From a virus (taxonomy: Duplodnaviria > Heunggongvirae > Uroviricota > Caudoviricetes): a DNA stretch of 18,404 nucleotides. This document shows positions 1-9,321 of this stretch, in pieces. The stretch lies in IMG/VR virus record IMGVR_UViG_3300029713_000154. One strand, 5' to 3'. The stretch's first letter is position 1, and every line of letters begins with the position of its first letter. The position numbers were made by a program, and so were the translations under genes. The notes beneath the pieces were generated by a model. It was not told where the DNA came from. It saw nothing but the letters and a program-made list of their open reading frames with translations, and did not search any database.

Positions 1-400
1 GGAGTGCCATGATGGTGCCCTCAGTGAGCCAGAGAGTTCAGTGTACGGGAATTCGTTTGCGAGCAGAACTGATAATATCCCTTTGTTCTCTTCTTAAATA
101 TTTATCTTTCTTGATAATTTACGATAAATACAGATACAAATTTAGCGAAAAGTTTTCCCCCTACAAACAACAGTAATTCATTAACTCTTTATTTTTCATT
201 TGGTTAAAAATTTTTCTCAATTTTGGCACGCTTCTCGCAATAACACTTTTGCGTTGATACTGAATTTCAAAGGGGGTTAATCCCCCGTCGGCACACCAGG
301 AACGGCCAGGCTGTTTTCCGGGCGTGTTCCGTCAGCCTTTGACGCCAATTATGGGTTCGATTCCCACATTCATTCCTGAAATGAATACTGGTTGTAACTT

Positions 401-439
401 ATTAAATAAAAAGTGAGGGATTGCGCAGTCAGCGATCCC
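401..439 (-). terminator. orphan terminator-like hairpin (minus-strand sense)
   Basis: GGGATTGC (417-424) pairs with GCGATCCC (432-439): 8 bp with one G.U and a 7-nt loop. Read on the minus strand it is followed by TCACTTTTTATTTAAT (complement of 401-416). No convincing minus-strand gene ends here. Confidence 0.3.
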
Positions 440-539
440 CGATAACGTCGCCGATAAAGACGCCGGGTAACAGGCAAAAGGGAATTCCCCTGTCGCTTCG
501 TGTCTGCTTCCGCGACGGCTGTTAAGCAAGGAATAGATA

Positions 540-1667
540 ATGATTAAGAAAATAAACGTAAGAAAAGATCAGCTGGCATTACTCTCCAGAAATGGCGATT
601 ACTACAAAGTGCTGCATGCAGGCGAGCATATTTTACCCTGGTTAAATACGCCGGAAGTGTTGCTGATTACTCTGGATGGCAGCGAAGTTCCCGACGTGCT
701 GGCGGATTATTTGCGCCGCTTTCAGCCTGATTGGGTGGAAAGATATTGCCTGGTGGCAGACATGTCGGAAACTGAAGCCGGGGCGTTGTATATGGACGGT
801 ATTTTGCTTGAGATCCTGCCGCCATCAACGCGCCGTTTATACTGGCGTGTAGAGGATGATTTGACGCTGGTGCGGATGAACACGCAGCAAGTCCAGGTAC
901 AAACGGAGGTGATGAATGCGGTATTGCAACCACGGCGCAAAGGGGCAGTTAAAGGCCGCGATGCAATACTAACGGTGCAAGTTCCGGCCTGGCACGTAGG
1001 CGTGCTGAAAATCGATGGTGAAACGCAGGCGCTGTTACCGCCGGGGCTGACCGCATACTGGAAAATAAATCATCTGGTTGAGGCTGAAGTTGTCGACACC
1101 CGCTTGCAGGTACTGGAAGTCAGCGGGCAAGAAATCTTAACGAAAGATAAGGTCAATCTGCGGATTAATCTCGCCGCTAACTGGCGCTACAGCGACGTGT
1201 TGCTGGCATTTAGTCAGTTAACGAAGCCGATTGATCATTTGTATCGGGAATTACAATTTGCCCTGCGTGAAGCGGTAGGTACGCGTACGCTGGATGAACT
1301 GCTGGAAGATAAACAGGTCATTGATGACGTTGTCAGCGAACAGGTGAAATCGCGCATGTTGCCATTTGGTATGGAGATTGCCTCATTAGGGGTGAAAGAT
1401 ATCGTCCTGCCTGGTGATATGAAAAATATCCTCGCGCAGCTGGTTGAGGCAGAGAAATCTGCGCAGGCGAATGTGATTCGCCGACGTGAAGAAACGGCAG
1501 CGACGCGCTCGTTACTGAACACCGCCAAAGTCATGGAGAACAATCCGGTAGCGTTGCGTTTAAAAGAGCTGGAAACGCTGGAGAGAGTGGCTGAGCGGAT
1601 CGATAACATCTCTGTATTTGGCGGTCTGGATCAGGTTCTGCATGGGTTGGTTAATATCAAAGGGTGA
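540..1667 (+). CDS. SPFH/band-7 (slipin-like) domain protein without an obvious transmembrane segment
   Basis: 375-aa ORF with an AAGGAA Shine-Dalgarno-like sequence upstream of ATG 540. The C-terminal half (LTKDKVNLRINLAANWRY...TRTLDELLEDK...FGMEIASLGVKDIVLPGDMKNILAQLVEAEKSAQANVIRRREETAATRSL) has the SPFH core followed by the usual Ala/Glu-rich helix. The N-terminal ~150 aa are unassigned and contain no hydrophobic stretch long enough for a TM helix. Confidence 0.8.
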   Translation: MIKKINVRKDQLALLSRNGDYYKVLHAGEHILPWLNTPEVLLITLDGSEVPDVLADYLRRFQPDWVERYCLVADMSETEAGALYMDGILLEILPPSTRRLYWRVEDDLTLVRMNTQQVQVQTEVMNAVLQPRRKGAVKGRDAILTVQVPAWHVGVLKIDGETQALLPPGLTAYWKINHLVEAEVVDTRLQVLEVSGQEILTKDKVNLRINLAANWRYSDVLLAFSQLTKPIDHLYRELQFALREAVGTRTLDELLEDKQVIDDVVSEQVKSRMLPFGMEIASLGVKDIVLPGDMKNILAQLVEAEKSAQANVIRRREETAATRSLLNTAKVMENNPVALRLKELETLERVAERIDNISVFGGLDQVLHGLVNIKG

Positions 1668-2464
1668 GTAACATGCCATTAAATGGAGTCAGTGCTGCGA
1701 TGCGCGAAAGGGTATCGCAGCAGTTAAAAGAAATTGAACGGCGGTATGATGTGAAAGTATTGTACGCCTGTGAATCAGGGAGTCGCGGTTGGGGATTTGC
1801 CTCGCCCGACAGCGACTACGATGTACGGTTTTTGTATGTTCACCCGCTGGAATGGTATCTGCGAGTAGAGTCACCGCGCGATGTTATCGAGCTGCCCATC
1901 GATGACGAGTTAGATGTTTCCGGTTGGGAGTGGCGTAAGGCGCTGGGATTATTGAAAGGCGCGAACCCGACGCTGATAGAATGGCTGGATTCTCCGGTGG
2001 TCTATCAACAAGATGAAGAAACGATAACGGCGCTTAAGGCAATGGTCCCAACGTGGTTTTCTCCGCTGCGTGCGCGCTGGCATTACTATTCGATGGCGCA
2101 GAAAAACTTCCGCGGATATTTGCAGGGCGATGAAGTTCGACTGAAAAAATACTTTTACGTGCTGCGCCCGCTGCTGGCCGTTCGTTGGGTTGAAGCGGGA
2201 AAAGGTGTACCGCCAATGCGTTTTTCCGAATTGCTGGCGGGAAGTGAGTTGGATGCGGCATTACGCGCAGAAATAGATGAATTGCTGGAGCGTAAACAGC
2301 GTGCGGGTGAAGCGGAATATGGACTGCGCCGTCCTTTGTTACATGCGTTTATTCGTGCGGAACTGGCGCGCGGGGAAATTCCTCCGCTGTTACCAGACAG
2401 CCGGGAAGGGGACGTTAAAGAACTGGATAGTTTACTGTACCAGACGGTAATGCGCCGGGCGTGA
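1664..2464 (+). CDS. pol-beta superfamily nucleotidyltransferase (COG3541/PF10127-like predicted NTase)
   Basis: Signature ESGSRGWGFASPDSDYDVRF (G-S ... D-x-D) near the N-terminus, followed by a helical C-terminal region. GTG 1664 overlaps the SPFH stop (GTGA). ATG 1673, preceded by GGTGAG, is an equally plausible start. Either way the gene is coupled to the upstream one. Confidence 0.8.
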   Translation: MSNMPLNGVSAAMRERVSQQLKEIERRYDVKVLYACESGSRGWGFASPDSDYDVRFLYVHPLEWYLRVESPRDVIELPIDDELDVSGWEWRKALGLLKGANPTLIEWLDSPVVYQQDEETITALKAMVPTWFSPLRARWHYYSMAQKNFRGYLQGDEVRLKKYFYVLRPLLAVRWVEAGKGVPPMRFSELLAGSELDAALRAEIDELLERKQRAGEAEYGLRRPLLHAFIRAELARGEIPPLLPDSREGDVKELDSLLYQTVMRRA

Positions 2465-2481
2465 AGCCCGGCGTTATTTTA
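2453..2481 (+). terminator. rho-independent terminator of the SPFH-NTase operon, shared with the convergent island operon
   Basis: CGCCGGGC (2453-2460), loop GTGAA, GCCCGGCG (2466-2473), then TTATTTTA. The NTase stop codon lies in the loop. The stop of the convergent 151-aa gene (2479-2481) lies in the T-tract. Confidence 0.6.
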
Positions 2482-2934
2482 CGGCTGATATTGCCAGCTA
2501 CTGACTAAAGCGTACAAGTGGTTTGGGGAATAGCGCCAACTCTCCTTTAATTGCAGAAATTCGGCACAAAATTCGCTGCAAAACAGGCGTTCACGCTGTT
2601 CTTTATTACCGGTAATAATTCCAAGCGCGCCGCGCCAATCATATTTTTTGCCATCATGTTTATGGAAAAACGCTTCCACGTCCTGAAGGCTGGCCTGGAG
2701 CGGCAGCATATCCCACTTATCCGCTGGCAATGGCATTATCTTTCCGCGTACACCGCGATCGCGCAGTGATGCAGAGTAACAAAGGTAACTCTTTTCACCA
2801 TGCTTAACGGCTAATTCACAGTGGGAATAACTACCGCGCGTGATTTTACGGGTAAGCCAGTCAGCCAGTCGGGCAATACCACGGTGCTCTGTTCGGCCCT
2901 TATAACAAGCGAGCCAGACAGTGGTTTTACTCAT
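2479..2934 (-). CDS. hypothetical protein, possible permuted papain-like/NlpC-P60 hydrolase (YiiX/YaeF, C92-like)
   Basis: 151-aa ORF whose ATG overlaps the chaperone stop (ATGA at 2931-2934). It has a His-containing motif GSYSHCELAV early and a Cys motif RLFCSEFCAEFL late. This His-before-Cys order is what I recall for permuted papain-fold amidases. The family call is tentative. Confidence 0.55.
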   Translation of the reverse strand: MSKTTVWLACYKGRTEHRGIARLADWLTRKITRGSYSHCELAVKHGEKSYLCYSASLRDRGVRGKIMPLPADKWDMLPLQASLQDVEAFFHKHDGKKYDWRGALGIITGNKEQRERLFCSEFCAEFLQLKESWRYSPNHLYALVSSWQYQP

Positions 2935-3545
2935 GCTTGCCAGCCTGTTGAATAATCGTAGTCGAGCACCGCCTGAATATCGTCCAGAGCTTCCACCGCC
3001 GCGATATGGTGCTGGGCATTGGCGAACAGGCGCATATCGTGATCCATTGTTACCGATTCAAACTGGGCGGCGATCTCGTTGGTTAACTCGATCAGACCGT
3101 TATTTTTAGTTTTCCACATTAACCCTGGAGGGATTTTTTTCTCCGCTCCCATTTTTGTGAGTGAGAGCTGTTGGATACGGCTGTTTGTATCACTGTGGAA
3201 GTGATGGTTGTTGATGATGATGTAATCGGTTGTGACGTAATCCCGTTTGGATTTTATTCTTCTTATTATATCCGCTTTTATTTCTGAAATAAATTTAAGC
3301 ATTGAATCTGTATCAACTATCCATTCTCCTTTTTTTAGTTTGTGAAATCTATCTGGTGGTGGCGTAGAGATAAAGGATAAATCTTCACAGTTAATCCAAA
3401 TTGGGATATTAGCTTTCGCATATGTCTGCCATTGCTGATCAGTTATTTCAACTAAATGTTCTACTTTAGGATAGTTGTAGTGTTCTGTATCGATCCAGTC
3501 CAGAACGATAAATGTTTCAGGATCAAAACAAGCATATTTTGTCAT
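2931..3545 (-). CDS. tail fibre assembly chaperone (Tfa/DUF4376-like)
   Basis: 204-aa ORF starting 6 nt downstream of the fibre gene. Central ...HHFHSDTNSRIQQLSL... and C-terminal ...AAVEALDDIQAVLDYDYSTGW resemble fibre-assembly proteins. The position is canonical for P2 G / Mu U. Confidence 0.75.
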   Translation of the reverse strand: MTKYACFDPETFIVLDWIDTEHYNYPKVEHLVEITDQQWQTYAKANIPIWINCEDLSFISTPPPDRFHKLKKGEWIVDTDSMLKFISEIKADIIRRIKSKRDYVTTDYIIINNHHFHSDTNSRIQQLSLTKMGAEKKIPPGLMWKTKNNGLIELTNEIAAQFESVTMDHDMRLFANAQHHIAAVEALDDIQAVLDYDYSTGWQA

Positions 3546-3551
3546 TTTTAA

Positions 3552-5378
3552 TTACCATGATATTTTTACGAAGCCAGAGGCACCTTTTGTTCCGCTAGTA
3601 TTGCCTAAATTTGTTAACTCATTATTTTTATATTGAAAAGGAGGTAAATAAGATCCCCCAGCTCCTCCAGAACCATAACCTGTTGCTGCTGTTGGCTTTG
3701 CCATTACTGCTTTTTTTCCACCATTACTTAGGTTTTCTGTAATAACAGTACCTGAAGCCCCTCCCTTTCCATATATAGAATTTTCACCATTCTTTCCAGG
3801 ATAAAATTCTGCAGATGACGGTATTGCATTTGGTGGAGTACCTTTAGGATCGTCACTGAATTTTATATAAGGCTGCGTAGTGTTAGAGTGATAAATGTTA
3901 TATCCTCCATGGCCACCTTTTGCAGTTAGATTAGAAAACGAAGAGTCTCCACCATCAAAGCTTTTTTGTGTTGTCTCTGTTTTATCATACGAATACTTTA
4001 TTTGTGAAACAGGTGGATTGTTCCAAAAAGGACCTCCATTACCTCCAGCTCCGATCTTTACTGAAAAATGCTGGCCTGGTGCCACGTTTAAGTAATCAAC
4101 AATCAATTCTCCTGCATTACCTCCGCAGGCTTCATAATGTGATGATTGTGCTCCTCCGGCCCCCCCACCTCCGCCGCCCATAATTTCCACAAATAATATT
4201 GTTACGCCCTCAGGAACTATAAATGTTCCATTTGTAGTATAAAAACTAGTGTGGGTATGATTAGCTGGAGCTGCAGTTTTTGCCTTATCCATTGCCGCCT
4301 TCACCGCGCTCGGTGTCGCCGCCTCCGTCGTACTGTTGCTATCCGTCGCGTTATTAAGCTTCACAATCCCTTTTTGCGACAGGGTGCCGTCTGGAACACC
4401 CGTAATCTGTCCCCATGGGTGAGTATGGTTTCCCGCAGCCTTACTATTCGCCAGGTCATATGCCGCCTTCACCGCGCTCGGTGTCGCCGCCTCCGTCGTA
4501 CTGTTGCTATTGGTCGCGTTATTAAGTTTCACAATCCCTTTTTGTGTCAGGGTACCGTCAGGAATACTCGTAATCTGCCCCCAGGGGTGCGTATGACTAC
4601 CCGCAGCCTTACTATTCGCCAGGTCATACGCCGCCTTCACTGCGCTCGGTGTCGCCGCCTCCGTCGTACTGTTGCTGTCTGTCGCGTTATTAAGCTTCAC
4701 AATCCCTTTTTGTGTCAGCGTACCATCTGGTATATCAGTAATCTGACTCCAGGTATGACGATGATTTCGAGCCTCAATCATTGCCGCTTTCACCGCTTTT
4801 GGCGTAGCCGCTTTGGTTTCGTCATCACTGTCAGTGGCGTTACTCAACTGTGTAAAGCCTTTTTGCGTTAACGTAGCATCAGGATGATTAGTCGAACGCT
4901 CATGTTCATCCAGTTGTGAATCAACATAATCCCGTGTTGCCAGTACAATACTGGGGTCAACGGTGAGTGTTACCGCAGTCGTGTTGGAAACTTCCATAAT
5001 CAGGCGAATGCAAACTTGCTTACCGCTGCCGCCGGGTAATAGTGGTTTATACGACTCCGGGAATTTACCGATAGCAATGAGTTCACCATCGGTATCAAAA
5101 ACGCCGACTTCACGTACATACCAGCCGCCGATATTTTCGGGCAGCACGAGTTCCGCAATTAACCAGTTAGGGTTATTGGGTGCAACTGTTAATGTATTTA
5201 AATCACCGCGCCATACTTCATGGCGTAATTTAGTTTGGCTGACGGTGGGTTCATAATATTGTCCTCCGCTGTCACCAACAGCCATTTTTTGTAGATGAAG
5301 CTGTTTTTTATCCGCCAGAGCATTGGCAATTTTTGCCATTCCCCTGTCGGTGAGTAGAGTATAAAACTCATTGTCCAT
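3552..5378 (-). CDS. tail fibre protein (P2 gpH-type N-terminus, repeat shaft, glycine-rich C-terminal tip)
   Basis: 608 aa in three parts:
- N-terminal ~150 aa (MDNEFYTLLTDRGMAKIANA...GGWYVREVGVFD...GKFPESYKP) look like the P2 H-type baseplate-attachment domain.
- aa ~169-376 are tandem fibre repeats (TLTQKGIVKLNNATDS..AATPSAVKAA..HTHPW).
- aa ~377-608 are Gly-rich (FIVPEGVTILFVEIMGGGGGGAGG...GFVKISW). Confidence 0.9.
   Translation of the reverse strand: MDNEFYTLLTDRGMAKIANALADKKQLHLQKMAVGDSGGQYYEPTVSQTKLRHEVWRGDLNTLTVAPNNPNWLIAELVLPENIGGWYVREVGVFDTDGELIAIGKFPESYKPLLPGGSGKQVCIRLIMEVSNTTAVTLTVDPSIVLATRDYVDSQLDEHERSTNHPDATLTQKGFTQLSNATDSDDETKAATPKAVKAAMIEARNHRHTWSQITDIPDGTLTQKGIVKLNNATDSNSTTEAATPSAVKAAYDLANSKAAGSHTHPWGQITSIPDGTLTQKGIVKLNNATNSNSTTEAATPSAVKAAYDLANSKAAGNHTHPWGQITGVPDGTLSQKGIVKLNNATDSNSTTEAATPSAVKAAMDKAKTAAPANHTHTSFYTTNGTFIVPEGVTILFVEIMGGGGGGAGGAQSSHYEACGGNAGELIVDYLNVAPGQHFSVKIGAGGNGGPFWNNPPVSQIKYSYDKTETTQKSFDGGDSSFSNLTAKGGHGGYNIYHSNTTQPYIKFSDDPKGTPPNAIPSSAEFYPGKNGENSIYGKGGASGTVITENLSNGGKKAVMAKPTAATGYGSGGAGGSYLPPFQYKNNELTNLGNTSGTKGASGFVKISW
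4251..4874 (-). repeat. in-frame tandem repeats inside the fibre gene (168-bp period)
   Basis: The string GCCGCCTTCACCGCGCT, or a near-identical version, restarts at 4294, 4462 and 4630, giving a period of 168 bp (56 aa). A diverged 153-bp-offset copy starts at 4783. At protein level there are three near-identical copies plus diverged first and last copies. Confidence 0.9.
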
Positions 5379-5380
5379 AA

Positions 5381-6028
5381 TTACTCCGGGTAAATAGATG
5401 TAATTTCAAGGCTCCATTGCCCTGTTCCGTAATAAATCGATGTGTTGTGCTGTACTTCCCGTATCTGGAAAGGTAAAACCGTCGTCAGTTCACCACCATA
5501 AAGTGCACAGCCAATAACAGGAATAGCACTTTGGTTAATGATCCAGACGATTAATGCTTCCAGTTTTGAACGTGTGTTTTTATATTCATGAATGAGTTCT
5601 ACCAAATCATTGAAAAGGTTTTCATCCAGGCCTTTATCCACCAGCGCTATATCCACCTTAAAAAAATAAGCCCTTCCCCCATATTCAAACCATTCTGAAA
5701 TAGTTCCTGGTAATGAGAGTATTTCCAGCACCCGCCGCACCGCCCAAATTGTTCCTTTATATTTATGCAGTTCAATGGCTTGTTTAATTAACTCGCGTTT
5801 CTCCCGCTCATCGGTGGTAAATAACCAACCTTCCAGCCCCTGAACGTGAAATTGTTCTGCAAGGGCTGGTAATGCCGAAGCATCAACCTGGTCGATCAGA
5901 TAAACCATCAACGCCGTCAGATCGAGTTGGGCAAAACGCTCGGCGGCGATATTTGCCAGAATCGAAAAACGCTCATCGCTGGCAAGCGGCGGCGGTGGCA
6001 GCAATTTATCCATCGCTGACTCCGGCAA
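5381..6028 (-). CDS. baseplate/tail protein, P2 gpI family
   Basis: 215-aa ORF between the gpJ-like and fibre genes. It overlaps gpJ by 23 nt and ends 2 nt before the fibre ATG. Size and position match P2 gpI. Confidence 0.8.
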   Translation of the reverse strand: MPESAMDKLLPPPPLASDERFSILANIAAERFAQLDLTALMVYLIDQVDASALPALAEQFHVQGLEGWLFTTDEREKRELIKQAIELHKYKGTIWAVRRVLEILSLPGTISEWFEYGGRAYFFKVDIALVDKGLDENLFNDLVELIHEYKNTRSKLEALIVWIINQSAIPVIGCALYGGELTTVLPFQIREVQHNTSIYYGTGQWSLEITSIYPE

Positions 6029-7121
6029 TCGTGACGTCTATTGCGGTGCATTCCGCCCACTCATGCGCCTGCAAAATACGTTTTGTAGGCATATTCAGCG
6101 CAACGTCATAGACGCCATCGACCTGTAACACTTTGATTATCTGGTTTGGCACAATGTCCTGCCCCAGATGTTTCTGCCGCTGTTGCGTCCAGAGGCTAAT
6201 CGCTTTACGCGCTGCAGCCAGCGTTGTCTCCTGATCGGCGGTGGTAAACAGCGTTAGCTGCGCACGGATCTCATATGGCACTCGAAGAGCGCATTTCGCA
6301 CTCACTTTGTCGGTCAGCGGACGTTTTTTCTCCTTGCTAACCTCCTGTTCAATTTGCGCGAGCAGTTCTATTCCCGGCAGTCCGTTCAGAGTTAGCGGGT
6401 AGATCTCCACGCAGCCTTCTGGCAATCCCTCGTCCGGCCCCAGTACTGCAACGTCAATAATCGACTGGCTAACAGAAAGCGTATGAAAGCGGTAGGCACC
6501 ATAGCTGCCCGCATTACTAAAGCTTTCTGGTGCCAGTTGGATACGCTGGCGCAATGCGTCATCGCTCTCTTCACCGCAGCCGCCCGTTGACGCAGTCAGG
6601 TTGGTTACGTTGATGTCATAATGACCAATCCTGTCGACCAGTGCGCTAATTTGTGCAGGCTGCCAGCCGTTACCCTGTTCACCTGCTGCGAGGCTGGTGG
6701 CAGGAACGGCGATATGCAAACTCCTGGCCGGAAGCAGAACATCTTCATCGGTGGCGAACATCACGCTATCAGAGGCACTGGCCCGCGTTCCCTGGGGAAT
6801 CAGGATATTGCTGGTATACGCGCTGACGACCGAAAACTGCAACGTCGTTTTTGCCGGCTGCGCAGGCAAACGGTGAACGCCCACCAACTCCCCTAAATAA
6901 TCCAGCATTGGCGCGCGGGAATACGCGACCAGGTTCTGTTTCGCCGCTTCCTGAATGGCGATGCGTACAAGGTTTTCACGATAGGCAAACAGGTCGATGA
7001 GCAACCGCTCAGCCTGTGCCGGATAGAGTTTTTTACCGCTGGCATCTTCGTATTGCGCAATCATCTCACTGGTAATTTGCGCAGGATCGCGGTCAATAAA
7101 ATTGGGTTCGGCTATCGCCAT
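6006..7121 (-). CDS. baseplate wedge protein, gpJ (Baseplate_J) family
   Basis: 371-aa ORF overlapping gpW by 10 nt. The N-terminus MAIAEPNFIDRDPAQITSEMIAQYEDASGKKLYPAQAERLLIDLFAYRE is typical of P2 J / Mu gp47-type proteins. Confidence 0.9.
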   Translation of the reverse strand: MAIAEPNFIDRDPAQITSEMIAQYEDASGKKLYPAQAERLLIDLFAYRENLVRIAIQEAAKQNLVAYSRAPMLDYLGELVGVHRLPAQPAKTTLQFSVVSAYTSNILIPQGTRASASDSVMFATDEDVLLPARSLHIAVPATSLAAGEQGNGWQPAQISALVDRIGHYDINVTNLTASTGGCGEESDDALRQRIQLAPESFSNAGSYGAYRFHTLSVSQSIIDVAVLGPDEGLPEGCVEIYPLTLNGLPGIELLAQIEQEVSKEKKRPLTDKVSAKCALRVPYEIRAQLTLFTTADQETTLAAARKAISLWTQQRQKHLGQDIVPNQIIKVLQVDGVYDVALNMPTKRILQAHEWAECTAIDVTIAGVSDG

Positions 7122-7471
7122 AACACCTCCGTTGAGTTGATAACGCCGTCAGCGGCGCGCCATTGCACACGTAACGTCAGATGTTCGCCGTCGATTACTG
7201 GTGTCACCTTCAGCAACCGACAGCGCGGCTCCCACTGGCGGATGGCTTCCACCGACTCCCGTACCACATGCGGAATTGCCCGCTCGATGGGGTAATCGAT
7301 GTAGTGCCACAAGTTGCTGCCAAACAGCGGTCTGTGGGGATCACTGCCGCGCGGTGTGCGCAGAATGATGTGTATTGCCTGGTGAATATCATCCAGTCCG
7401 CAGACGTATTCTTCAGGCCGCTGCAAGGCCGGTTGCCAGTGCAGCGTTGAGGGTCGTGTTTTTGTGTTCAT
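7112..7471 (-). CDS. baseplate wedge protein, gpW/T4 gp25 family
   Basis: 119 aa. The motif LRTPRGSDPHRPLFGSNLWHYIDYP...AIRQWEPR is characteristic of the GPW_gp25 family. No Shine-Dalgarno sequence precedes the ATG (GAAAATACCCTCATG). Confidence 0.9.
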   Translation of the reverse strand: MNTKTRPSTLHWQPALQRPEEYVCGLDDIHQAIHIILRTPRGSDPHRPLFGSNLWHYIDYPIERAIPHVVRESVEAIRQWEPRCRLLKVTPVIDGEHLTLRVQWRAADGVINSTEVLWR

Positions 7472-7477
7472 GAGGGT

Positions 7478-7534
7478 ATTTTCGCCCTGAACGGGCTGTG
7501 GCGATATTAAAGCGATTTAGAAAACTGATTGATT
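7478..7534 (-). promoter_or_regulatory. candidate activator-dependent late promoter (copy 2 of a conserved module)
   Basis: The minus-strand 31-mer AATCAATCAGTTTTCTAAATCGCTTTAATAT (7534 down to 7504) matches the 31-mer at 16094-16064 at 22/31 positions, ungapped. CTAAATC (7520-7514) is followed by exactly 30 nt and then GAAAAT (7483-7478). There is no -35 hexamer. Confidence 0.4.
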
Positions 7535-7564
7535 AAAAAGAGAAAACCCGCCATCAGGCGGGTT
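7531..7564 (-). terminator. rho-independent terminator between gpV and gpW
   Basis: Minus strand: AACCCGCC TGAT GGCGGGTT followed by TTCTCTTTTTAATC. It starts 5 nt after the gpV stop. Confidence 0.65.
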
Positions 7565-7569
7565 AAACG

Positions 7570-8271
7570 TCAGTGTGTATGGTGGTTGGAGTTGCCACCG
7601 CTGTCCTGCAATGCGCCGCTGGCCTGAACGTTGCCGATCACGTTGACATTGCCAGTTATCGTGGCGGCGTTACCGATGCCTCCACTTCCTGCCATCCCGC
7701 CAAGCCAGGTGAGTTTTTTCATTACCGTGACATTGCCAGTAAAGGTGCTCATGGGCGCATCTACCGTCACTGCTGCCGCTTTAACATCGACCTTAGTGGC
7801 GTCGATGCTGACATCGGTCGCTTTAATATCGACGGTATCGGAAGTCACGGTGACCTGTTGGGCTTTAATCTCAACGTTGGGTGATGTCAGGCGGGTACTG
7901 TCGATAACCTCAATCACGATTTTCTCGATACCGCCGTTAATCGTCAGCTGGTGGGTGCTGCGGTCATATTCAAACGCTGCGCCATCAGAAAACTGGACGT
8001 AACGTTTATCGCGCGAGGCCACAGGCGCGGTGTCAACCGTAGAATAAACTGCGCCCAGCACCACGCCATCTTCACCGTTATTGTCCAGCAGAACTTCCAC
8101 TTGCTCGCCCATATCCGGTAGCCAGTAGTCTTTATTGTCCTGGGAATTGCGTTGAAGTACCGCAAGCCAGTTGCTCTTCAGATTGTCACACTCCGGAAGC
8201 GTGACTCGCACCCGAACGCTGGTTTCGTCAATATCGCTGATAATCCCCGTTTGACGGGTTACTCCTTTCAT
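7570..8271 (-). CDS. baseplate central spike, gpV family
   Basis: 233 aa. The N-terminal OB-like region (GIISDIDETSVRVRVTLPECDNLKSNWLAVLQ) is followed by a repetitive beta-helix-like V/T/D-rich segment and a His-rich tip (NSNHHTH). Confidence 0.85.
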   Translation of the reverse strand: MKGVTRQTGIISDIDETSVRVRVTLPECDNLKSNWLAVLQRNSQDNKDYWLPDMGEQVEVLLDNNGEDGVVLGAVYSTVDTAPVASRDKRYVQFSDGAAFEYDRSTHQLTINGGIEKIVIEVIDSTRLTSPNVEIKAQQVTVTSDTVDIKATDVSIDATKVDVKAAAVTVDAPMSTFTGNVTVMKKLTWLGGMAGSGGIGNAATITGNVNVIGNVQASGALQDSGGNSNHHTH

Positions 8272-8280
8272 ATTTCCTCC

Positions 8281-9321
8281 TTACTGGCTGGTCGCTGGCC
8301 CGCGTGACACGTCGATTTCAGTGGTATAGCCGCTGCGCACAAAACTGTGAGTCGATTTATCAATCAGCCACTGACCGGAAAGCACGCCAAAATCGGTCAG
8401 TTCAATTTTATTGCCCGCCGTCAGTTCCGGGCAGCCCATCATCCTGAGCGTTCCGGTTTGTTGATATTCGTTGTGGCTGTCGAGCGCGGCGTTGGCCTTT
8501 GCCTGTGCCGCGCCAACGTCCGGCGCCCGACTGTTCAGTTTTAGCGTGTCGGCACTGGTGCCGACTCCACGGGTAGACGGTTTTTGCTGGCTGTCGTGGG
8601 TGTAGATAACCAGTTCTTTTTTCTTACTATTTTGATGCTGTACGGTGGCATTTTTGTAGATACGGTTAATGGTATCTTTGAAGGTGAAATGCGAAACGTC
8701 TTTGCGGTCGATCGTTTTTACCGGCGCCAGGCAGCGCAGCGTGGGTAAATGCGAAAAAATCAGTTCTTTGGTGGTCACCTTTACCGCATAGCCATATTCG
8801 CTGGCCAGGCGCTTGAGAAATCCGACATCGGTTTCACCATACTGCGTTACCCGGTCGATGGTGAGCGGCTCGATTTTGCCCACCAGTTTCAGACCGTGCG
8901 TTTGGGCGATACGGCTGGCGATAGCCGAAAGCGTCGTTTCTTCAAAGCCCTGGCTGTTACGGGTACGCAGCGCCTGATTGACGGAAGTGGCGATGCCATC
9001 AATATTTACCGTAGAAGGTGGCGCTGAAATATCAATTTTATCAATAATATACTGACCACAATCGAGCAGCTTTTCCCCCTGATAACCCATATGCAGCGCC
9101 AGCGTATCGCCTTTGCCGGGATACCACTCTTTTATCCAGCGTCCATCGGTGTCATCCAGTGTAATCGCGATGGTATCTGACTCGTTTTTGATGCTGTCGT
9201 GGTAACTGATGCTGGTGACATAGGGTGTGATGTCATAAGTGATATCTTTATGCCCATACCAGAGGGTAAAAATGGGCGTGAGTGTGGCAAAGACGCCACC
9301 AGTTACGCTTATCTCAGCCAT
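8281..9321 (-). CDS. baseplate hub, P2 gpD (late control D/VgrG-N-like) family
   Basis: 346-aa ORF directly after gpX, overlapping it by 13 nt. Size and order (U-X-D-V) match the P2 tail module. Confidence 0.85.
   Translation of the reverse strand: MAEISVTGGVFATLTPIFTLWYGHKDITYDITPYVTSISYHDSIKNESDTIAITLDDTDGRWIKEWYPGKGDTLALHMGYQGEKLLDCGQYIIDKIDISAPPSTVNIDGIATSVNQALRTRNSQGFEETTLSAIASRIAQTHGLKLVGKIEPLTIDRVTQYGETDVGFLKRLASEYGYAVKVTTKELIFSHLPTLRCLAPVKTIDRKDVSHFTFKDTINRIYKNATVQHQNSKKKELVIYTHDSQQKPSTRGVGTSADTLKLNSRAPDVGAAQAKANAALDSHNEYQQTGTLRMMGCPELTAGNKIELTDFGVLSGQWLIDKSTHSFVRSGYTTEIDVSRGPATSQ

Follow-up and report, generated by a model that had tools for sequence, protein, structure and literature searches.

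Why does the DNA turn abruptly AT-rich across the junction of a tail fibre gene and the gene behind it, and does this mark a receptor-binding module that is exchanged as a unit? We asked this of a window of 18,404 nucleotides (nt), the whole stretch of DNA that was analysed and to which all positions refer, from the IMG/VR virus record IMGVR_UViG_3300029713_000154, assigned to the Caudoviricetes. An earlier sequence-only reading had proposed that 3100-4250 is a horizontally exchanged cassette, made up of the glycine-rich fibre tip and about three-quarters of the fibre chaperone, with recombination joints inside both genes. We conclude that 3228-4290 is very probably the type A allele of a polymorphic host-range cassette, carried in a tail-only (R-type tailocin-like) cluster of some Escherichia and Salmonella. 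The parts of the fibre and chaperone genes on which the argument depends are as follows.

3228..4290, minus strand: the exchangeable cassette, consisting of the fibre C-terminal tip, a 6-nt spacer and chaperone codons 1-106; ~1.06 kb, GC ~0.37, where homology breaks.
3552..5378, minus strand: the tail fibre, 608 amino acids (aa), with a baseplate-attachment N-terminus, four shaft repeats and a glycine-rich tip.
4251..4768, minus strand: three tandem 168-nt (56-aa) shaft repeats (family D1 of the repeat search), the last copy being the fibre-side recombination flank.
3555..4292, minus strand: the fibre tip, aa 363-608, a predicted TNF-like beta-sandwich plus glycine-rich lattice and the presumed receptor-binding domain.
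~4155-4244, minus strand: the tip entry motif NGTFxVPxGVT...GGGGGG, a semi-conserved island leading into the glycine-rich domain.
2931..3545, minus strand: the chaperone, 204 aa, an open reading frame (ORF) downstream of the fibre.
3228..3545, minus strand: the chaperone N-terminal domain, aa 1-106, variable, allele-specific and probably tip-binding.
2931..3227, minus strand: the constant chaperone C-terminal domain, aa 107-204 and the stop, beginning at DYIIINNHHFHSD; the chaperone-side recombination flank.

The gene calls agreed with those of the sequence-only reading. The fibre stop codon (3552-3554) and the chaperone start (3545) lie 6 nt apart on the same strand, and the order of fibre then chaperone was identical in all 15 of the 15 related loci examined. 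Pfam assigned the fibre to Phage_tail_fib at aa 1-150 (E 6e-61), to four stretches of Phage_fiber_2 (E 1e-71) and to Gly_rich_2 at aa 381-607. The fourth of the shaft repeats so counted is more diverged and is located upstream of 4251-4768. Shaft-repeat copy number varies, with four Phage_fiber_2 stretches in the window and apparently three in the Escherichia albertii locus L010.

The sharp AT-rich dip that had been seen by eye between ~3100 and ~4250 was recovered directly when composition was computed. In 100-nt sliding windows, GC was 0.50-0.55 at 2700-3100, 0.25-0.43 at 3100-4100 and 0.50-0.61 above ~4250, and a likelihood fit with two change points over 2000-6000 placed boundaries at 3100 and 4030 (GC 0.51, 0.36 and 0.48 for the successive segments; log-likelihood gain 25.5). 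The 921 bp of 3228-4148 have a GC content of 0.368, which is 3 SD under the mean of all 921-bp intervals (0.489, SD 0.041) and near the minimum for the 18.4 kb (0.363, interval starting at 3083). The GC content of third codon positions (GC3) fell to 0.22 for the tip and 0.27 for the first 106 codons of the chaperone, compared to 0.59 for the C-terminal half of the latter, 0.48 for the part of the fibre that precedes the tip and 0.42-0.66 for the remaining tail genes. Because GC3 is low, while the GGN glycine codons of the tip should raise GC, the dip is a codon-level feature and not one of amino-acid content. These same glycine codons, with the semi-conserved motif, account for the gradual recovery of GC over 4030-4290. 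GC3 was depressed in every cassette allele, the other alleles and the Salmonella version having values of 0.27-0.37, and low GC appears to belong to the exchangeable module itself.

Comparison between strains placed the ends of the module independently of its composition. The window matches the E. coli S10 chromosome, and those of many further strains, at 100% identity, and the RefSeq annotation of the identical S10 locus puts the element between yjbD and lysC. Of 5426 complete E. coli genomes, 197 have the baseplate region, each as a single chromosomal copy. The polymorphism of the cassette across strains that the sequence-only reading had thought worth looking for is present, with at least five types at this locus.

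Type A (this window): Gly_rich_2 tip; 40 complete E. coli genomes, all at least 99% identical, one place each.
Type B (A10): Gly_rich_2 tip; 6 complete E. coli genomes.
Type C (LD67-1): Collar-domain/His-box tip ending NIAFNYIVRLA, with a Caudo_TAP-like chaperone N-domain; 141 complete E. coli genomes at 80% coverage or more.
Type D (E7-1N7): Gly_rich_2 tip; 1 complete E. coli genome.
Type E (L022): short non-glycine tip with a third, unrelated chaperone N-domain; a draft assembly.

When the window was aligned with the type B strain A10, the left flank (1-3227) was 93.9% identical overall and 93-98% identical in the final 330 nt before the joint, and the right flank was 94.3% identical overall and 99-100% identical over 4300-4599. 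At each joint, identity fell from 93-100% to below 50% within ~60 nt. The chaperone-side joint, 3227/3228, corresponds to codon 106, directly before the invariant DYIIINNHHFHSD, and the fibre-side joint at ~4290 corresponds to residue ~363, the end of the last 56-aa shaft repeat. The joints were at 3258 and 4162 with E7-1N7 (type D) and at 3227 and 4357 with L022 (type E); against A10, E7-1N7, LD67-1 and the contig L022, homology was lost from 3227-3258 to 4150-4360, between flanks 90-98% identical. An exchanged module with joints inside both genes is therefore directly visible as loss of homology between conserved flanks, and in E. coli the tip and its flanks are not always inherited together with uniform divergence, the flanks retaining 90-98% identity where homology of the cassette is lost. 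The fibre-side boundary predicted at 4250 was within 40 nt of the break at ~4290. The chaperone side fared differently. Exchange of its N-terminal part was upheld, but the extent of ~145 codons, or about three-quarters, was too long, comprising in fact codons 1-106 of 204, about half. The overestimate arose because composition had been followed: the compositional boundary at 3100 falls in sequence conserved across all alleles, and 3100-3227 is AT-rich yet part of the constant domain, the recombination joint lying instead at 3228-3258. The 99-100% identity of A10 over 4300-4599, amid a flank of ~94%, may reflect a recent conversion tract beside the cassette joint.

With the type C strains (LD67-1, NCTC9699 and MRY15-117) the chaperone joint was found likewise, at 3255. 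On the far side, the whole fibre and the C-terminus of the adjacent baseplate protein differed, and homology resumed only at ~5505 (5505-5510 for the loci L003, L004 and L005). An additional co-variation, of the gpI C-terminus with the fibre N-terminus, is suggested by this. Two further features enter here and in the comparison that follows.

5381..6028, minus strand: the baseplate protein gpI (Tail_P2_I by Pfam), whose C-terminal part below ~5505 forms a second module boundary.
2479..2934, minus strand: a 151-aa ORF that follows the chaperone, outside the swapped cassette, and tracks the backbone.

Another low-GC stretch, 5400-5850, overlaps gpI.

If tip and chaperone N-domain are exchanged together, their divergence should run in parallel, and this was directly observed. 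A scan of a genome collection with a chaperone profile returned 5 loci only, one of them in a probably mis-binned MAG labelled Bacillota, too few for a broad study of co-variation. We compared 8 glycine-rich tip/chaperone pairs, five of them from yjbD-lysC loci of three species and three from unrelated backbones. Tip identity correlated with that of the chaperone N-domain with a Spearman coefficient of 0.87, versus 0.22 for the chaperone C-domain and 0.30 for the 151-aa ORF, both of which track the backbone or the species; these coefficients come from 28 non-independent pairs among 8 loci, such that a p-value is not to be taken literally. The pattern is nonetheless unambiguous. Between types A and B, for example, identity was 33% for the tip and 34% for the N-domain, as against 98% for the C-domain and 96% for the 151-aa ORF. 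The co-variation is reinforced by the finding that three tip families (Gly_rich_2, Collar/His-box and that of type E) pair with three families of chaperone N-domain.

The sequence-only reading had described the tip as glycine-rich, distinct from those of P2 H, T4 gp37 and Mu S, and of an unfamiliar type. All but the last of these stands. The tip matches the Pfam family PF21722, Gly_rich_2, with 41.4 bits versus a cut-off of 24.3 (E 2.2e-10, profile positions 1-224 of 226), a family that has a solved member in the gp24-gp25 pair of phage Pam3 (PDB 7YPX). A profile of 14 sequences of the tip family matched the Pam3 fibre by sequence (E 2.5e-6). The single-chain model of the tip has the predicted beta-sandwich and glycine-rich lattice of the solved Gly_rich_2 member, and a Foldseek search of predicted viral structures returned hundreds of "glycine-rich domain" fibre and minor-tail proteins. 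A sequence search of the PDB with the tip as a single sequence gave no useful match, and no receptor for a glycine-rich tip of this type turned up in the literature consulted.

The only Pfam match of the chaperone was DUF4376, at aa 88-196 (50 bits versus a cut-off of 25, E 4.6e-13), and it also matched the PHROG tail families 1807 (E 6e-45) and 2837 (E 4e-40). An AF2 model of the N-domain was beta-rich over aa 1-77, with a long helix at aa 79-105 (pLDDT 93). The C-domain is 96-98% identical across the E. coli glycine-rich types, near-identical by eye in types C and E, and 64-82% identical on unrelated backbones. The protein thus has the domain of the DUF4376 chaperones, their position downstream of a fibre gene, and a variable N-domain joined to a conserved C-domain. 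DUF4376 proteins are fibre chaperones shown by experiment to be needed for a functional fibre in Alteromonas phage V22 (gp27) and the Campylobacter CJIE1 prophage (PMC7289586, PMC7882524), and gp9 of Alteromonas phage A5 is listed as a DUF4376 tail fibre chaperone (PMC10579305). By this analogy, the view that the gene downstream of the fibre encodes its chaperone is credible. The window shares with V22 gp27, A5 gp9 and CJIE1 the DUF4376 C-terminal domain and its place downstream of the fibre; unlike in those systems, the chaperone role is here predicted; hosts and backbones differ too, and neither the N-domains nor the tips of the fibres are related. NCBIfam supplied no name for the fibre, the chaperone or the 151-aa ORF. 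Membership of Caudo_TAP (PF02413; lambda Tfa and P2 G) was considered for the window chaperone and rejected, no match being found at E up to 0.01; the type C chaperone of LD67-1 does match this family (30.9 bits versus a cut-off of 22.1).

R-type pyocins (Prf15/Prf16 of R1-R5) and Pseudomonas tailocin haplotypes (e.g. bioRxiv 10.1101/2023.04.17.536465) are tail-only clusters at a fixed site, in which the fibre C-terminus and its cognate chaperone set killing and several alleles are kept. The window lineage differs from these in being Mu/P2-like with a Mor activator, in residing in Enterobacteriaceae and in being known here from its genes alone. The folds differ as well, the tip of the window being predicted as TNF-like/glycine-rich and those of R-pyocins being described as lectin-like (PMC6363177). 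The closest solved analogue of the arrangement in the window is Pam3 gp24/gp25, a 3:3 complex of fibre and chaperone (PDB 7YPX; PMC9608196). In this complex, gp25 binds the tip, TNF-like and glycine-rich, through a variable N-terminal beta-sandwich and trimerises through a conserved helical domain at its C-terminus; binding of the receptor is proposed to occur at the distal ends of the glycine-rich loops, which are hypervariable (PMC9608196). The polyglycine-rich domain of T-even gp38 adhesins such as that of phage S16 (PDB 6F45, as cited in PMC9608196) is similar in that hypervariable distal loops, borne on a glycine-rich lattice, recognise the receptor. TfaMu (gene U of Mu), P2 G and lambda Tfa are also encoded directly downstream of the fibre, and there too a fibre tip moves between phages along with its chaperone (North et al. 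2019, as summarised in PMC7882524 and PMC9608196). Unlike them, the window chaperone has no Caudo_TAP match, only the type C allele being Caudo_TAP-like, and unlike Mu the window has no Gin/Cin-type invertible segment.

The element that carries the cassette has the gene content of a tailocin. RefSeq annotates a Mor-family activator, a putative holin, a lytic transglycosylase, a membrane protein, sheath, tube, tape measure, gpU/X/D, baseplate V/W/J/I, the fibre, the DUF4376 protein and the 151-aa ORF, followed on the opposite strand by a slipin and an RlaP-type nucleotidyltransferase. The annotation between yjbD and lysC lacks genes for a head, for packaging, for replication and for an integrase. 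A contractile tail with its baseplate is thus found without head genes at a fixed site, together with a lysis cassette and a regulator of its own, and the E. coli, E. albertii and Salmonella elements share the chromosomal site. From this gene content we infer an R-type tailocin-like cluster, with the formation of particles and killing. Literature searches, which paired tailocin with lysC, E. coli or Salmonella and also covered Gly_rich_2 and STM42xx locus tags, turned up no paper specific to the yjbD-lysC locus, and since no paper on the cluster was found its activity is presumed here rather than demonstrated. A paper on an "ST131 tailocin" was set aside, its subject being prophage regions of ~23 kb, one with head genes, to which no link with the yjbD-lysC locus was established. 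Megablast of a phage database gave a sole match, of 79%, to the fibre shaft in a Salmonella phage fragment.

The above considerations point to a mechanism in which the cassette would encode two parts that must fit each other, a TNF-like/glycine-rich tip resembling Pam3 gp24 and a DUF4376 chaperone N-domain that binds it. Because the chaperone begins 6 nt past the fibre stop and the two parts are contiguous, a single double crossover can replace both. Crossovers would fall in the conserved flanks, that is, in the last fibre shaft repeat and at the start of the constant chaperone C-domain. The latter would drive trimerisation, by analogy with TfaMu and Pam3 gp25, and the fibre shaft and N-terminus would preserve the fit to the baseplate. 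The allele carried would then decide which cell-surface receptor is bound, and hence the spectrum of killing or adsorption. That tip and chaperone N-domain are exchanged as a unit is a textbook principle; what is distinctive here is the apparently undescribed Escherichia/Salmonella tail-only cluster and its Pam3-like glycine-rich tip.

If the cluster makes particles, the cassette decides which strains are hit, and the joints at 3228 and ~4290 are splice points for retargeting an E. coli/Salmonella tailocin. With its five or more alleles, one of them common to three species, the locus would serve as a natural system for studying how alternative killing specificities are kept among competing enteric strains. 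It also places a little-studied receptor-binding fold, for which structures come from one cyanophage and one mycobacteriophage only, in a genetically tractable host, such that the receptor could be found in E. coli.

Several points weigh against this interpretation. The chaperone matched no PDB chain, TfaMu (5YVQ) and Pam3 gp25 (7YPX) included, either as a single sequence or as a 46-sequence profile at E up to 10. The mechanism of the chaperone, the receptor-binding role of the tip, the production of particles and their killing, and the identity of the receptor are all things that we infer. The ~40 type A genomes coincide, judged by identity bands, with 36 whose baseplate is at least 99% identical to that of the window; type A therefore seems bound to a single backbone haplotype, with no sign of its having been shuffled recently. 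The non-independence of the pairs in the co-variation statistic belongs here too. Lastly, the cassette model leaves unaccounted for the persistently low GC3 of an old resident allele.

Such low GC3 might instead be the un-ameliorated signature of a low-GC donor outside the E. coli/Salmonella pool, from which the cassette was recently imported. Its GC3 of 0.22-0.27, far under the 0.5-0.6 of the element, is in keeping with this, as is its near monomorphism among the E. coli genomes that carry it. The closest relatives of the tip and chaperone nonetheless come from E. albertii, Salmonella and further members of the Enterobacteriaceae and, where the locus was examined, occupy the same chromosomal site. 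A word-index search with the tip returned, besides E. coli itself, proteins of Salmonella at 48-66% identity. Of the only four HMMER matches to the tip in an exhaustive search of 1.8 billion representatives (E up to 1e-10), the three that are named are all from Salmonella and the fourth is a 1643-aa metagenomic protein (P0010), and tblastn of the tip against 50,697 phage records gave no match. For the chaperone, a homologue of 90% identity occurs in E. albertii, and full-length homologues of 48-69% occur in Salmonella, Scandinavium, Enterobacter and Superficieibacter. E. albertii carries the type A cassette at the same chromosomal site, with nucleotide identities of 87% for the tip, 93% for the N-domain, 90% for the C-domain and 89% for the 151-aa ORF, a divergence uniform over cassette and flanks save for one shaft-repeat indel. 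The Salmonella element adjoins yjbD/rluF/pepE and has a type-A-like cassette whose tip is 64% identical in protein and 53-79% in nucleotide sequence, between flanks of 65-85% nucleotide identity. Since the E. albertii divergence is uniform and the Salmonella element shares the site, type A is best seen as an old allele that has travelled with the element across species, with no recent import. Together with the depressed GC3 of all alleles, this removes the ground for reading low GC as a sign of recent foreign origin, and we regard such an import as improbable. Receptor-binding tips are classic targets of diversifying selection, and the tip of the window is somewhat less similar to that of Salmonella at the nucleotide level than are the flanks (53-69% as against 65-85%), such that the alleles could in principle have diverged in place under strong selection on the receptor-binding surface, without recombination. 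The collapse of identity within ~60 nt at both joints speaks strongly against this, as do the three unrelated tip architectures with their three unrelated N-domains, one of them Caudo_TAP-like, which point substitution cannot yield. No intermediate alleles were seen among ~200 loci. Furthermore, other backbones carry the triad of glycine-rich tip, DUF4376 chaperone and ~150-aa ORF: L019 (Logan SRR24067447 contig) is a Mu-like prophage that has Mom, and in L020 and L021 (E. coli draft assemblies) the triad lies in another tail cluster, with DUF2590, Baseplate_J and HP1_ORF34. The fibres there have 538-788 aa. Because the module occurs on these unrelated backbones, the exchange pool includes phages, and several enterobacterial phage lineages share it. 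Divergence in place is the least probable of the explanations weighed here, and very improbable.

A third possibility is that the cluster is a decaying prophage remnant, its cassette without current function and its low GC a product of relaxed constraint or AT-biased mutation. Particle production is presumed from genes only, and decay is indeed seen elsewhere: type C fibre genes are often disrupted and annotated as partial pseudogenes (L003 and L005, both at 5538-6785), and IS1 interrupts one type A copy (hit H67, NZ_LR130552.1), indicating that the element is being inactivated in some lineages. In the window, the tail, baseplate, lysis and regulator ORFs are all intact, and 40 genomes carry the fibre and chaperone of type A undisrupted and at 99% identity or more. 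The ORFs have moreover stayed intact through 7-13% nucleotide divergence from E. albertii and ~35% protein divergence from Salmonella, which argues for purifying selection, and an AT bias due to decay would not end sharply at domain boundaries. A functionless remnant is therefore quite unlikely, slightly more so than a recent import, and we retain the reading of 3228-4290 as one allele of an exchangeable host-range cassette. Two other sources of variation were considered and rejected. An invertible segment of the Mu G, P1 C or shufflon kind found no support, there being no inverted repeat of 14 nt or more in 2300-5500 and no annotated recombinase. For a diversity-generating retroelement no reverse transcriptase is annotated, and apart from the shaft repeats the direct repeats are short chance matches only.

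One further contig, L013 (JAEZCC010000043.1, "MAG: Bacillota bacterium", 6.6 kb), encodes a chaperone 100% identical to that of the window and is almost certainly a mis-binned E. coli contig.

The loci also differ in the genes beside the tail module. In the window, the cargo between it and yjbD (540-2464, plus strand) consists of the slipin (SPFH) and the RlaP nucleotidyltransferase. The E. albertii locus has a GT4 glycosyltransferase (L010, 10678-11820), L022 has a GT4 glycosyltransferase and RlaP (6620-8624), and the Salmonella locus has a hexapeptide acetyltransferase, an ORF of no assigned function and an SBF transporter (L006, 2297-5223). PADLOC returned no match for the slipin, the nucleotidyltransferase or the 151-aa ORF. 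The cargo genes might serve in surface modification or in protection of the producer. A bolder proposal, which we consider possible though rather doubtful, is that the cluster is an undescribed active R-type tailocin family common to E. coli, E. albertii and Salmonella, in which a long-lived trans-species polymorphism of at least five cassettes, among them Pam3-like TNF/glycine-rich tips directed at an enterobacterial surface receptor, sets the killing spectrum, the 151-aa ORF is a fibre accessory and the neighbouring cargo gives self-protection.

The 151-aa ORF had no match in Pfam or NCBIfam, its only match being PHROG 1128 (E 4e-58), labelled "enoyl-CoA hydratase/carnithine racemase-like". 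It may be an uncharacterised fibre accessory factor. It followed the DUF4376 chaperone at every locus examined, whatever the cassette type, in each of three species and also on phage backbones that are unrelated, at identities of 96-99% within E. coli, 75% in Salmonella and 42-57% elsewhere, and it has the conserved motifs YSHCE and FCSEFCAEF.

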